DNA of 64,000 bases from a virus. Lineage: Duplodnaviria; Heunggongvirae; Uroviricota; Caudoviricetes. Each line of letters begins with the position of its first letter. Position 1 is the stretch's first letter. The stretch lies in IMG/VR virus record IMGVR_UViG_2939521961_000018; one strand, 5' to 3'. Of the stretch, positions 54,001 to 60,000 are shown piece by piece. Made by a program: the position numbers.

Positions 54001-57000
54001 GGGCATCATGCTGAAAATCACCCCAAACTTTGCTCAGGAGCGCGGTTTAAACCAGCTGCGGCACCAGTGGAAACAGCATCGCACGTACCTGATGTACGCA
54101 CCCACTGGCTCTGGCAAAACTGGTCTTGCAGCATTCGTCACCGCCGGAATGGTTGAACGTGGTATGCGGGTGATGTTCGTCTGTCCGTACACCATCCTGC
54201 TGAACCAGACAGCGGAACGTTTCACCGAATACGGTTTGCCGTGGGAAGAAATCAGTTTTGTATGGCGTGATCACCCTAACTATGACCCGTCACGACTGAT
54301 TCAGATTGCCAGTGCCGACACGCTGATCCGTCGTGAGTTTCCTGACAACATCGATCTGCTGATCATCGATGAAGCACACATGAAGCGTCGTGCGTTACTT
54401 GAGGTTATCCGGGACAAAGATATCAGGGTTCTTGGGCTTTCCGGCACCCCGTTCGCAGCCTGGATGGGGAAGTACTACGAATGCCTGATCAAGCCTACAA
54501 CGATTCGTGAACTTATTCAGCGTGGTGATCTGAGCGATTATGAGTTTTTTGCCCCCTCAATGCCTGATCTGGCTGGCGTAAAAACCAGTAACACCGTATT
54601 TGGACGGGATTACAACGAGGAACAGCTCGCATCCATCATGGGGAGTTCGGATCTGGTTGGCGATATCGTCAGCAACTGGCTTGAGAATGGCGAGGATTTA
54701 CCGACGATCTGCTTCTGCGTGAATGTGGCTCATGCGAACTTTGTTACCCGTGAGTTTTTACAGTCTGGCATTGGCGCAGAGGTGATGACGGCAGATACCC
54801 CACATGATGAACGACAGGACATCATTCGCCGTTTTGAAGAGGGGGCGACCAAAATAATTGTCAACGTTGGTGTACTTGTTGCTGGATTTGACAGTGATGT
54901 TCGCTGCCTGATCTACGCCCGTCCGACCAAATCAGAAATCCGCTGGTTACAGTGCATCGGGAGAGCGTTACGTACTGCCTCTGGTAAAAAACGGGCGCTG
55001 ATTTTCGACCATTCCGGCACGGTTCATCGGCTGGGCTTCCCTGAGGATATCGAGTATGACGAACTGCCGGGCAAAAATGACGGCATGAAAGCGTCTGCTG
55101 GCGGTGGTGAGGTTAAAGCTGAAAAACTTCCCAGAGAATGCTCCAGATGCCACTTCATGAAGCCTGCTGGCGTGCATATATGCCCTAAATGTGGGTTTCG
55201 TCCTCTTGGTGGCGATGATGTTGCGACCGACCGCGATCGAAAACTCTCACGCGTAAACAAAGGGAAACGCGAATACAGTCGCGAGGAAAAGCAGCGTTGG
55301 TGGAGTGAGATCAAGGGGTATCAGAATTACCGCAACGCAACAGGTAAACCCCTGAGTGACGGATGGTGCGCTCATACCTACAAGGAGAAGTTCGGTGTGT
55401 GGCCTAAAGGGTTCAGTAACGCGCCGCTGCAAACCTCAGTTGAAGTGTACAACTTCATCAAGTCAAAGACCATTGCCTATGCCAAAGGGCGCAAGAAAGC
55501 AATGACAGGAGGCCAGCATGCAGACTAAGAAGGCAGCGGTCGGGCATTGGGGGCGAATTTTTGAATATTACGGCATGCCTCCTGTTACTGGCTTGAAACA
55601 TTATAGCGGCCCCTGCCCGATATGTGGTGCCAGAGGTAAATTTCGTTGTGATGATAAGGATGGATCCGGCTCGTGGATTTGCGTCTGTGGTCACGGGGAT
55701 GGGATGAAGTTGTTGCACCTTGCCACGGGTAAGCCCTGGGTGACGTTGTGTGATGAAATCGATCGGCTGATCGGAAATACCTGGAAGAGGGAGAAAGTCA
55801 GCCAGCCTGTAACAGAGATAAGCAGAAAGCGGGAGCTGGTCATGGATAAGTTTGCCGGACTCCCGTGTCTGCGGGGCACAACAGGTGAGGCGTACCTGCA
55901 GGGGAGGGGAATACTCCAGTTACCGACCGAATCCGTGCGTTTTTGTGACCGTCAGATCGCCAGCGGGCGCGAATATCAGGCAATTTACGCCATTGCAACA
56001 GATGACAGAGGTTCTCTTTGCTATCTGCATCGTACGTTGCTGGATGGTGATCGCAAGGCGAATGTAGAGGCGGCTAAAAAAATGACCGCGCTACAGGAGT
56101 TGCCTGGTTTGCAGCATGCCAAATCGGTGGCAATACGCCTGTATCCGGTGTCGTCCACTCTGGGGATAGCCGAGGGTATCGAAACTGCGCTTTCATGCCG
56201 TCAAATCTTCCGCTGCAATGTGTGGTCAACAATGAACTCCGGTTTTATGGAGAAGTTTATTGCGCCACCAGGCGTTAATCACCTGATTATCTTTGCAGAC
56301 AATGATGAGCACGGCGCAGGTCTGGCGGCTGCCTTTAAATGTGGGCATAAGAATCTCATGAGTCGTAATGACGTTGAGAAGGTCAGCATTCGCTGGCCTG
56401 ACTTGCCGGATTTTAACGACATGCTCATTCAGGGGTGTGAAGCCCGTGAACATGTGTTGACGCGCAAATTCAAAGCGGAGGCTGCCTGATGGAAATAGAG
56501 ATGATCAAGGCGGCTAATGGCGTATTTGTACCGGCGTATGAGCGCGATTTACCCCGACTGGCAAAATTTAAAAACGGTGAGCTGTATACACTGGAAGCAA
56601 AACTTACCCGTAACCCATCTTTTCACCGGAAGATGTTCGCTTTTCTTAATTTCTGCTTTCAGTACTGGTGCGCTGAACATGCTGGATACGAATTCTCTGA
56701 TGAAGCGACGCAGTTTGATGAGTTTCGTAAAAATCTGACAATTCTTGCCGGGTTCTATGATGTGGTCACAACCATAAGAGGCGAGGTGAGATATCGGGCA
56801 AAAAGCCTGAGTTACGCGAATATGGATCAGGATGAGTTTGAACGTTGCTACAACGCAATGATTAATGCCGCGTTAAAACATGTGTTCGGGCGCTCAAACA
56901 ATCCTGAACTGAATAACCGCCTGCTGTCGTTTTTCTGAGGTGATGATGAAGCAACGTAAACCAAAAAAATGCAAAGTGTGCGGCTCCTCGTTTGTGCCGT

Positions 57001-60000
57001 TCCGCTCATATCAGAAAGTTTGCTGTGGTCAGTGCGCACTGGAACTGGTCAGAAAAGAAAAGGCGATAGCTTCAGCAAAAGAGCAGGCAGACAAGCTGAA
57101 AGCGCGCAGGAGGGACTTACAGCCCCGCAGTTACTGGATTAAGCAGGCACAACAGGCTGTGAATGCTTATATCAGGGAGCGGGACCGTCATTTGCCGTGT
57201 GTTTCATGCGGGACGTTCGATTCAGCCCAGTGGGATGCAGGCCATTACCGTACAACAGCTGCGGCACCTCAGCTCAGATTTGATGAACGCAATATCCATA
57301 AGCAATGCGTGGTGTGTAACCAGTACAAAAGCGGAAATCTCGTTCCGTATCGTGTCGAACTGATTAACCGCATCGGGCAGGAAGCAGTAGACGAAATCGA
57401 ATCAAACCATAGTCGCCACCGCTGGACTGTCGAAGAGTGCAAGGCGATCAAGGCAGAGTATCAACAGAAACTTAAAGACCTGCGAAACAGCAGAAGTGAG
57501 GCCGCATGACGTTCACCGTAAAAACCATTCCTGACATGCTTGTTGAGGCATATGGAAATCAGACCGAAGTGGCCCGAATACTGAACTGCAATCGTGCCAC
57601 AGTCAGAAAATACATTGGCGATAAAGAAGGGAAAAGACACGCTATCGTCAACGGTGTTCTTCTGGTTCACCGCGGATGGGGTAAAGATACTGATGCGTGA
57701 TATCCGGCAGGTTCTTGAGCGCTGGGGGGCATGGGCGGCAAATAACCATGAGGATGTTACATGGTCGCCCATTGCTGCCGGATTTAAGAGGCTGATCCCC
57801 GAAAAAGTAAAATCACGTCCACAGTGTTGTGACGATGACGCGATGATTATATGCGGGTGTATGGCTCGCCTTAACAGGAACAACAGCGATCTGCATGACT
57901 TGCTGGTTGATTATTACGTGTTGGGGGAGACGTTCATGGCGCTGGCACGGAAACATGGGTGCTCTGACACCTGTATAGGTAAACGCCTTCACAAAGCGGA
58001 GGGGATTGTTGAAGGCATGCTGATGATGCTGGGAGTGAGGCTTGAGATGGATCGGTATGTTGAGCGTGAATTGCCGGGAGGGAGAACCTCTGTATTTTAT
58101 CAGCGAAAAAATAGTTTACGATCGTAAAAATCTGCATATCATGATAAGAGTGGTTACATTGCCACGCATTCGAACCCGCCGATGCGCGGGTTTTTTTGTA
58201 CCCCGAATCCTGTGAGCTATACGGAAAGTACACAGAAAGGAAGGTGCGACCGTAATTAATAACAAAATCTTAAAAATCGCATATAGCACTATTAGTTTTC
58301 TAAATATTGTATATTTTAAGTATTGCAGGATAACCCTGTAACGAAGTTTGCGTAACAGCATTTTGCTCTACGAGTTTGCCAGCCTCCCCCAGTGGCTGGC
58401 TTTTTTATGTCCGTAGCGTCAAAGCAGCAATGGCGCTAGGGCGTCGTGCAATTGGCGTTGAGCTGGAGAGCGGGCGTTTTGAGCAGACGGTCAGGGAAGT
58501 TCAGAATGTAGTCAGTCAGAACGGATGATATTGCAGAATTAGTTACGTACCGTTATTATCCTGCGCCCGGCCCTTTAGCTCAGTGGTGAGAGCGAGCGAC
58601 TCATAATCGCCAGGTCGCTGGTTCAAATCCAGCAAGGGCCACCATATCACATACCGCCATTAGCTCATCGGGACAGAGCGCCAGCCTTCGAAGCTGGCTG
58701 CGCGGGGTTCGAGTCCTCGATGGCGGTCCATTATCTGCATTATGCGTTGTTAGCTCAGCCGGACAGAGCAATTGCCTTCTGAGCAATCGGTCACTGGTTC
58801 GAATCCAGTACAACGCGCCATATTTATTTACCAGGCTCGCTTTTGCGGGCCTTTTTTATATCTGCGCCGGGTCTGGTGCTGATTACTTCAGCCAAAAGGA
58901 ACACCTGTATATGAAGTGTATATTATTTAAATGGGTACTGTGCCTGTTACTGGGTTTTTCTTCGGTATCCTATTCCCGGGAGTTTACGATAGACTTTTCG
59001 ACCCAACAAAGTTATGTCTCTTCGTTAAATAGTATACGGACAGAGATATCGACCCCTCTTGAACATATATCTCAGGGGACCACATCGGTGTCTGTTATTA
59101 ACCACACCCCACCGGGCAGTTATTTTGCTGTGGATATACGAGGGCTTGATGTCTATCAGGCGCGTTTTGACCATCTTCGTCTGATTATTGAGCAAAATAA
59201 TTTATATGTGGCCGGGTTCGTTAATACGGCAACAAATACTTTCTACCGTTTTTCAGATTTTACACATATATCAGTGCCCGGTGTGACAACGGTTTCCATG
59301 ACAACGGACAGCAGTTATACCACTCTGCAACGTGTCGCAGCGCTGGAACGTTCCGGAATGCAAATCAGTCGTCACTCACTGGTTTCATCATATCTGGCGT
59401 TAATGGAGTTCAGTGGTAATACAATGACCAGAGATGCATCCAGAGCAGTTCTGCGTTTTGTCACTGTCACAGCAGAAGCCTTACGCTTCAGGCAGATACA
59501 GAGAGAATTTCGTCAGGCACTGTCTGAAACTGCTCCTGTGTATACGATGACGCCGGGAGACGTGGACCTCACTCTGAACTGGGGGCGAATCAGCAATGTG
59601 CTTCCGGAGTATCGGGAGAGGATGGTGTCAGAGTGGGGAGAATATCCTTTAATAATATATCAGCGATACTGGGGACTGTGGCCGTTATACTGAATTGCCA
59701 TCATCAGGGGGCGCGTTCTGTTCGCGCCGTGAATGAAGAGAGTCAACCAGAATGTCAGATAACTGGCGACAGGCCTGTTATAAAAATAAACAATACATTA
59801 TGGGAAAGTAATACAGCTGCAGCGTTTCTGAACAGAAAGTCACAGTTTTTATATACAACGGGTAAATAAAGGAGTTAAGCATGAAGAAGATGTTTATGGC
59901 GGTTTTATTTGCATTAGCTTCTGTTAATGCAATGGCGGCGGATTGTGCTAAAGGTAAAATTGAGTTTTCCAAGTATAATGAGGATGACACATTTACAGTG

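Follow-up and report, generated by a model that had tools for sequence, protein, structure and literature searches.

The window examined here, a 64,000-nucleotide stretch filed in IMG/VR as a virus (Caudoviricetes; IMGVR_UViG_2939521961_000018), is a chromosome segment of the Escherichia coli O26:H11 type. It carries two neighbouring lambdoid prophages, a P22-like prophage on the left and, on the right, a prophage encoding Shiga toxin 2a (Stx2a), and each of them contains the genes ninG (also called rap) and ninH. Our subject is the segment of these two genes that recurs between the prophages, its origin and its quality as a substrate for recombination. All positions are those of the window, counted from its first letter.

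Results

The ninG-ninH repeat

One direct repeat, found by self-BLAST of the window and by pairwise re-alignment, ties the two regions together: positions 4632-5204 on the left recur at 57116-57687 on the right, both on the + strand and at a constant offset of 52,484 bp. Late transcription of both prophages runs rightward on the + strand, which makes the repeat a direct one biologically too. Over 573 columns the alignment shows 86.2% identity, with 78 mismatches and a single gap at its extreme 3' end; its bit score of 674 (E = 0) is far above chance. Outside 4632 and 5204, BLAST detects no further homology between the two copies.

Identity along the repeat is uneven. Scored over 50 bp at a time, it is 68-80% in 4657-4756, 90-96% in 4757-5056 and 76-86% in 5032-5181. 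The longest stretch at 93% or above covers 4744-5062 (319 bp, 93.1%) and the longest at 95% or above covers 4816-5030 (215 bp, 95.3%, with 10 of 215 positions differing), while 400 bp of the repeat stand at 90.0%. This high-identity core is flanked by shoulders of 74% (4632-4743) and 80% (5031-5204), and the perfect runs in the repeat measure 38, 31, 28, 26 and 22 bp.

Both pairs of open reading frames (ORFs) match the Pfam families NinG and Phage_NinH over nearly the whole profile (Table 1). The NinG scores are 302.6 bits on the left and 245.1 bits on the right (profile positions 1-192 of 193; gathering threshold 25.4 bits), and those of NinH are 149.5 and 127.7 bits (profile positions 1-60 and 1-58 of 60; gathering threshold 29.8 bits). 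The N-terminal third of the right NinG is a different, highly diverged allele of unlike length, with a CxxC...CC motif kept in both proteins; the ATG codons at 56943 and 56946 are likelier starts of this gene than the GTG. NinG/Rap is known from phage lambda as a structure-specific endonuclease acting on Holliday junctions and D-loops (cited in PMC3945230), and NinH is a Fis-like DNA-bending protein (PMC7166090).

The repeat starts at about codon 71 of the left ninG and extends through 183 of the 207 nucleotides (nt) of the left ninH, about 88%. A first-pass annotation had already reported this recurrence, and our alignments bear it out as to the direct orientation, the + strand and the spacing of about 52 kb, as well as the gene names and the setting of two prophages with a Q-stx region on the right. 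Its figure of roughly 90 percent was slightly generous, since the range it gave (4640-5100 against 57124-57584) stands at 87.4%; and although it rightly included the 3' two-thirds of ninG, what it took for the start of ninH is nearly the whole gene.

The modules flanking the two copies are unrelated. On the left, ninF lies upstream, and a NinI-type phosphatase followed by a Q antiterminator of the PF03589 type lies downstream. On the right, a Toprim/zinc-ribbon primase and a DUF1367 gene precede the copy, and a PF06530-type Q, which overlaps the end of ninH by 8 nt, follows directly, then three tRNAs and stx2. The right prophage has no NinI phosphatase; with this gene the homology reaches its right border. 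After the right Q, the promoter and terminator scan gave one promoter-like site, 58115-58142, and then a hairpin resembling a terminator, 58172-58193.

A close known counterpart of this arrangement is the nin region of phage lambda. Lambda 42432-43246 matches the left copy at 95.6% DNA identity, the order ninF-ninG-ninH-ninI-Q of the left prophage is that of lambda, and both copies share with lambda full-length Pfam matches to NinG and Phage_NinH. The right copy differs from lambda in its shortened and highly diverged NinG N-terminal third (189 as against 201-204 amino acids (aa)), in the primase and DUF1367 genes that stand in place of ninF, and in having no ninI before its 933W-type Q. The left copy is 100% identical in many O26:H11 genomes, strain 11368 among them, and the 3 kb around the right copy are 99.9% identical to the Stx2a phage Stx2_KIH15-140 (LC645447). 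Over the nin-Q region the Stx2a prophage stands at 99.9% to that phage and at 99.0% to the O104:H4 phage phiON-2011.

Origin of the similarity

We counted synonymous and nonsynonymous divergence (pS and pN) between the left and right copies by the Nei-Gojobori method on aligned ninG codons. From 5' to 3', pS falls in steps, from 0.89 in 4633-4743 (pN 0.086) to 0.49 in 4744-4815 (pN 0.0) and 0.19 in 4816-5022 (pN 0.012), and in the bulk of ninH (5061-5204) it is up again to 0.49. The first and third ninG segments differ 4.6-fold in pS (Fisher p = 8e-9). The NinG protein is well conserved throughout, so that constraint on the amino acids cannot explain the step.

As a control for the gradient, six further ninG alleles were included (lambda, 434, P22, YYZ-2008, Oslo and an O157 933W-like phage). 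Between lambda and P22, pS across the same three segments is 0.00, 0.36 and 0.64, that is, the gradient is the opposite one. This reversal leaves no room for constraint at the nucleotide level or for a cis-element hidden in the core, and with it a universal gradient of conservation along ninG is ruled out. A search for an embedded cis-element behind the low-divergence core likewise gave no + strand terminator or promoter in either copy and no Rfam family; the only scan hits in the copies were minus-strand hairpins at chance level.

From the right core, the left, lambda, 434, YYZ-2008 and 933W-like alleles all lie at much the same distance (pS 0.17-0.19). This equidistance points to an exchange that is old and did not take place between the two prophages now resident here. 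The eight ninG alleles show three or more distinct intragenic break points, one of which lies inside the core. Moreover, when the 3 kb around the right copy served as query, 488 phage records matched, and their matches begin and end at few shared positions (module borders in Table 1). As hundreds of phage records break at the same positions, the borders of the repeat are general module borders of the lambdoid pool.

Search for recombinant products

The first-pass annotation had further proposed that recombination at the repeat could delete or exchange the intervening DNA and join the left nin region to the right Q-stx region. We built a query for the deletion junction (left 3633-4900 plus right 57385-58650), which was run against 5,426 complete E. 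coli genomes as well as 50,697 phage records, and one for the reciprocal junction (right 56100-57384 plus left 4901-6200), searched in the genomes only. No contiguous, near-identical deletion junction was found among these genomes and phage records. The best matches reached 97.0-97.6% identity, fell into two or three pieces and contained 1.3-1.7 kb of extra DNA. The reciprocal junction was covered to at least 80% in one place in none of the 5,426 genomes. The search of related genomes thus returned no contiguous near-identical hybrid. By comparison, the junction formed by the O-antigen acyltransferase gene (oac), intS, argW and int is found over its full length (100% coverage, 99.5% identity) in at least 15 genomes, and 151 genomes cover it to 80% or more; at least six of these demonstrably hold both prophage regions.

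The proposed combination of left nin and right Q-stx does exist in nature, in the 933W-like Stx2a phages of O157:H7 (for example the prophage of strain JEONG-1266, PA28 and vB_EcoS_P27), although not as a derivative of this locus. In these phages a left-type ninF and ninG 5' part are joined to a right-type ninG 3' part, ninH, Q, tRNAs and stx2a; their gene order is ninF, KilAC antirepressor, ninG, ninH, Q, tRNAs and stx2a. Up to 4869 the 933W-like ninG is 98-99% identical to the left copy and left-type at all 40 informative sites; past this point 31 of 41 informative sites are right-type, and downstream into Q the identity to the right prophage is 96.8%. A break between 4869 and 4890 fits best (Fisher p = 6e-14), and the crossover maps between 4869 and about 4945, inside the 95% core. 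The 933W-like phages differ from the window in being 97% rather than about 100% identical to it, in the KilAC antirepressor gene between ninF and ninG, and in an Ant gene upstream. With 97% identity and an extra antirepressor, they are relatives from the same gene pool and not derivatives of this locus.

In ninH of the JEONG-1266 prophage, four informative sites, in the equivalent of window positions 5105-5117, are back to the left type; this cluster may be a second, very short conversion patch or an ancestral polymorphism.

The repeat as a recombination substrate

The minimal segments for pairing are 31-34 bp for RecA and 23-27 bp for Red-beta, and in crosses between phage and prophage about 2e-6 recombinants per phage arose from a 703-bp homology at 88% whose longest perfect run was 49 bp, and about 8e-7 from a 980-bp one at 79% whose longest was 41 bp (PMC3945230). 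Such exchanges proceed mostly through the Rad52-like recombinase of the phage, Erf and RecT behaving like Red-beta, while recombination of the RecA type on E. coli plasmids drops 10,000-fold at 4% divergence (PMC3945230). The repeat offers RecA two perfect runs of at least 31 bp and one of at least 34 bp, at a divergence of 5-14%, over which recombination limited by RecA and mismatch repair is reported to fall by orders of magnitude. For the Rad52-like pathway (Red-beta, RecT or Erf) it holds four runs of at least 23 bp and three of at least 27 bp, which on sequence is sufficient, and RecT- and RecE-like genes are encoded at 46125-47830. With two runs of at least 31 bp and four of at least 23 bp, the repeat therefore stands at the lower edge of the range covered in PMC3945230.

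By the definition of De Paepe et al. (2014; PMC3945230), in which a mosaic is a BLAST match of at least 100 bp with an identity above 90% between temperate or defective phages, other than insertion sequences (IS), both 4744-5062 and 4816-5030 are mosaics; Pfam search found no transposase in the repeat segment. The shoulders beside the core are above background, placing the repeat among the mosaics with traces of homologous recombination (HR traces). At 573 bp and 86.2% identity, on the other hand, it falls short of the repeats of at least 5 kb at 98% identity or more that are used in prophage-mediated chromosomal rearrangements (Fitzgerald et al. 2021, PMC8743559).

Self-BLAST found no second direct homology between the two prophages in the window. 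The other matches between them are an inverted one of 199 bp at 71% (9078-9275 against 49214-49017) and an inverted pair of IS elements described below. The ninG-ninH pair is not unique in such chromosomes, as O26 genomes hold three to four matching copies. Chi sites (GCTGGTGG), which might boost RecBCD near the repeats, were considered and rejected: the only one in the window, at 63904, is far from both copies and at chance level.

Layout of the two prophages and other features

The P22-like prophage occupies bases 1 to about 31,000 and is about 100% identical to many O26 genomes. It contains an O-like initiator, a DnaB-like helicase, the nin region, Q, lysis genes, terminase, P22 portal and coat proteins, a tailspike and an O-antigen acyltransferase. 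Two different tyrosine integrases, together spanning 31219-33977, flank a single argW and face away from it, the IntS-type one adjoining the acyltransferase and tailspike end. The recombination module of the Stx2a prophage matches the PHROGs families phrog_743, phrog_149/434 and phrog_148 with E values of 1e-63 to 1e-95. In O26 strain 97-3250 the recombinase of the left prophage is Erf; here the left recombinase and immunity region lie beyond the window.

With IS elements in both scaffold and coat genes, the P22-like prophage must be regarded as defective here. IS600 at 14725-15989 interrupts the scaffold gene, an insertion that strain 97-3250 does not have, and an IS629/IS1203-type element lies in the coat gene, the ORF of which is without about 34 N-terminal residues. 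This element and a second one just past the Stx-phage integrase form an inverted pair (16797-18106 and 34792-36101) of 1,310 bp at 97.5% identity with a perfect run of 727 bp, which offers homologous recombination a far better substrate than the ninG-ninH pair does. A crossover between the two elements would invert a stretch of about 16.7 kb, including both integrases and argW. In the left nin region, the 1.1 kb upstream of ninF (3126-4262) are replaced by IS600 in strain 97-3250, which shows IS-driven erosion of the same nin region in relatives.

Table 1. Positions of the repeat, the genes around it, module borders and other features of the window
Feature	Position	Strand	Basis or remark
Left copy of shared segment	4632..5204	+	3' two-thirds of ninG and most of ninH, P22-like prophage
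Right copy of shared segment	57116..57687	+	In Stx2a prophage
High-identity core, left copy	4816..5030	+	Partner 57300-57514; 95.3%; holds the 38-, 31-, 28- and 26-bp perfect runs
High-identity core, right copy	57300..57514	+	Alignment and synonymous-divergence counts
ninG/rap, left prophage, 201 aa, lambda-type allele	4420..5025	+	Pfam PF05766, E 1.6e-90
ninH, left prophage, 68 aa	5022..5228	+	Pfam PF06322, E 2.4e-44
NinI-type Ser/Thr phosphatase, left prophage	5206..5871	+	Pfam Metallophos; coordinates mapped from strain 97-3250 annotation
Q antiterminator, left prophage	5868..6491	+	Pfam PF03589, E 3.1e-57; other family than right Q
ninG/rap, Stx2a prophage, 189 aa from GTG start	56940..57509	+	Pfam PF05766, E 6.6e-73
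ninH, Stx2a prophage, 64 aa	57506..57700	+	Pfam PF06322, E 1.6e-37
933W-type antiterminator Q, Stx2a prophage	57693..58127	+	Pfam PF06530, E 2.9e-51
Module border, mid ninG	57116		Homology start for 933W-like, Stx1a, lambda, 434 and P22 types
Module border, ninG stop	57509		P22/434 types then carry ninY or ninI
Module border, ninH end	57687		Lambda types
Module border	58415		Shared match limit in phage records
IntS-type integrase, right end of P22-like prophage	31219..32412	-	Pfam Phage_integrase; IntS in strain 97-3250 annotation
argW, tRNA-Arg(CCU), between both prophages	32538..32612	-	ARAGORN, Rfam
Integrase, left end of Stx2a prophage	32733..33977	+	Pfam Phage_integrase
Recombination module, Stx2a prophage	45538..47830	-	SSB 45538-46125, RecE-like exonuclease 46125-46814, RecT-like annealing protein 46811-47830
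IS629/IS1203-type IS3-family element in 5' end of P22-type coat gene	16797..18106	+	Absent from strain 97-3250
Second IS629/IS1203-type element, just past Stx-phage integrase	34792..36101	-	BLAST, Pfam

Several further observations concern the Stx2a prophage. In stx2A (58911-59870) the window has GGG at 59614-59616 where stx2a of O157:H7 and phage LC645447 have GGGG, a 1-bp deletion that splits the frame into ORFs of 260 and 78 aa; this is either a true pseudogene or a homopolymer error of the assembly. The gene stx2B (59881-60150) is intact, and just 3' of it a strong Rfam match (185.7 bits) to the small RNA STnc100 lies at 60225-60426 on the + strand. The early-left region contains a direct repeat of 239 bp at 89% (37916-38154 and 48705-48943) and another of about 290 bp at 69% (38237-38519 and 38765-39053), with two Rfam sRNA-Xcc1 matches (38537-38622 and 39070-39158) within or just past the latter pair. 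Rfam matches to C4 antisense RNA and isrK occur at 49355-49543 on the minus strand, inside or beside an antirepressor-like gene at 48656-49579.

Discussion

The presence of a shared ninG-ninH module in two lambdoid prophages is an ordinary and already known feature of this group. In our reading, to which we assign a probability of roughly 85%, the repeat consists of two ninG-ninH alleles that were inherited independently from the common lambdoid gene pool, and is an old mosaic and a weak substrate for recombination. As far as the codon comparison goes, the stepwise change of pS within ninG is the trace of an old intragenic homologous recombination and not of a recent exchange between these prophages. 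The repeat closely resembles the lambdoid mosaics with HR traces described by De Paepe et al. (2014, PMC3945230; see also Martinsohn et al. 2008, cited there), having the same short segment above 90%, shoulders of 74-80% and then unrelated DNA, and a size near the reported median mosaic length of 404-494 bp. Those mosaics, however, were found between separate phage genomes, whereas here one chromosome holds both partners as direct repeats 52 kb from each other, and the outcome of a single crossover would be a deletion instead of a hybrid phage.

Three points weigh against this reading. As to the direction of the historical exchanges, on the three sequences compared either the 933W-like or the right allele may be the recombinant. 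No recombinant of these two copies was found in the collections searched, so that the role of the repeat as a substrate is one by analogy. Finally, the frequency that we attach to it is borrowed from lambda and phi80 assays with marked double crossovers, which are other events than an intrachromosomal deletion.

The recombination-substrate claim of the first-pass annotation finds partial support: such an event could happen in principle, and the gene pool offers a precedent, but the repeat is weak as a substrate and no near-identical junction turned up in the collections searched. It is quite improbable that the repeat is an active hotspot at which the host RecA recurrently deletes 52.5 kb or moves the Q-stx region to the left prophage. 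The direct orientation, the perfect runs of 38 and 31 bp, which reach the RecA minimum of 31-34 bp, and the natural phages with the same left/right combination would all agree with such a hotspot. Yet the divergence, 14% overall and 5% in the core, is to be set against the 10,000-fold drop reported at 4% (PMC3945230), and 15 to 151 genomes keep the tandem oac-intS-argW-int junction, while neither the deletion junction (genomes and phage records) nor the reciprocal one (genomes) was recovered. The natural chimeras, at only 97% identity and with their extra antirepressor gene, did not arise from this pair.

Two known systems invite comparison. Rearrangements bounded by prophages in O157:H7 (PMC8743559) also result from homologous recombination between repeats of different prophages on one chromosome, but use repeats of at least 5 kb at 98% or more, mostly inverted, as against 0.57 kb at 86% in direct orientation here. 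In E. coli O157 Sakai, crossovers between the resident lambdoid prophages Sp5 and Sp15, which share homology between P and stx, move stx/Q modules and yield chimeric Stx phages, and they do so only after mitomycin C (Asadulghani et al. 2009, PMC2669165). There, identity exceeds 90% on both sides of stx and the chimeras were shown experimentally, whereas here the window has one short homology and no recombinant was found.

Could purifying selection alone, acting on a slowly evolving catalytic C-terminal part of NinG and on NinH, have produced the similarity with no history of recombination? The shared part of the protein is nearly identical (pN 0.0-0.09 over the three ninG segments) and the NinG N-terminal third is far more variable, as this explanation would have it. 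We nevertheless consider it very improbable, given that pS differs 4.6-fold between 4633-4743 and 4816-5022 in an equally conserved protein, that the gradient is reversed between lambda and P22, that the O157 allele, left-type at 40 of 40 sites, turns abruptly into a mostly right-type one, and that the core holds no + strand terminator or Rfam element. A recent gene conversion between the resident prophages, with the 95% core as a patch copied within this host lineage, is hardly credible at all: a core of high identity with lower shoulders is what a conversion patch should look like under the HR-traces model (PMC3945230), but this core still differs at 10 of 215 positions (pS 0.19), is equally far from lambda, 434 and YYZ-2008, and occurs as part of an allele that stands at 99-99.9% in free Stx2a phages of other hosts, so that the patch must be older than the co-residence of the two prophages.

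An exchange at the repeat is plausible at low frequency in induced cells, by way of the RecT/RecE-like pair of the Stx2a prophage, and should be negligible in uninduced ones. By analogy with the published crosses, this system could probably use the repeat after SOS induction at about 1e-6 or less per phage generation, while in uninduced cells RecA, with mismatch repair at work, would make very inefficient use of it. A crossover at the repeat would delete 52,484 bp. Lost from the left prophage would be ninI, Q, the lysis genes, all morphogenesis genes and the acyltransferase. From the Stx2a prophage, the regions for early functions, immunity, recombination and replication would go, and so would argW and both integrases. 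The cell may tolerate being without argW, since the phage-borne tRNA-Arg(UCU) at 58744-58820 would stay. The remaining hybrid prophage would consist of the left replication region and 5' part of nin joined to the right ninH, Q, pR', tRNAs, stx2 and late genes, with an immunity region, beyond the window, that would presumably be that of the left prophage. Having no integrase, such a hybrid could not excise; and as Q and its promoter would travel together, late and stx transcription would come under the early circuit of the left prophage. As for the reciprocal product, a circle of 52.5 kb, it would have IS-disrupted scaffold and coat genes. A circle of this size would exceed a P22-type headful, and with these genes disrupted it should not be viable.

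One may go further and speculate that positions of about 4816-5060, the 3' end of ninG and the 5' end of ninH, are a preferred linker for exchange in the lambdoid pool, at which Q-stx modules are repeatedly re-assorted onto other replication and immunity backbones, so that in this O26 strain induction of the Stx2a prophage could yield an integrase-less hybrid locked in under the P22-like repressor, or new variants of Stx phage. We regard this as unlikely.

That lambdoid prophages residing in one genome share nin modules, and that these help to generate chimeric Stx phages, is textbook knowledge for enterohaemorrhagic E. coli (PMC2669165, PMC3945230). What our analysis mainly adds is a calibrated negative: the repeat is real but weak, with no detectable product of deletion or exchange in thousands of complete genomes. 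Were the hybrid nevertheless to form, Stx2 would be expressed under a different repressor from a prophage unable to excise, which would bear on the inducibility of the toxin. In the wider gene pool, the ninG of the 933W-like phages is a clean natural intragenic crossover that joins a lambda-type nin region to a 933W-type Q-stx2 module, and it illustrates how stx late regions move between phage backbones.

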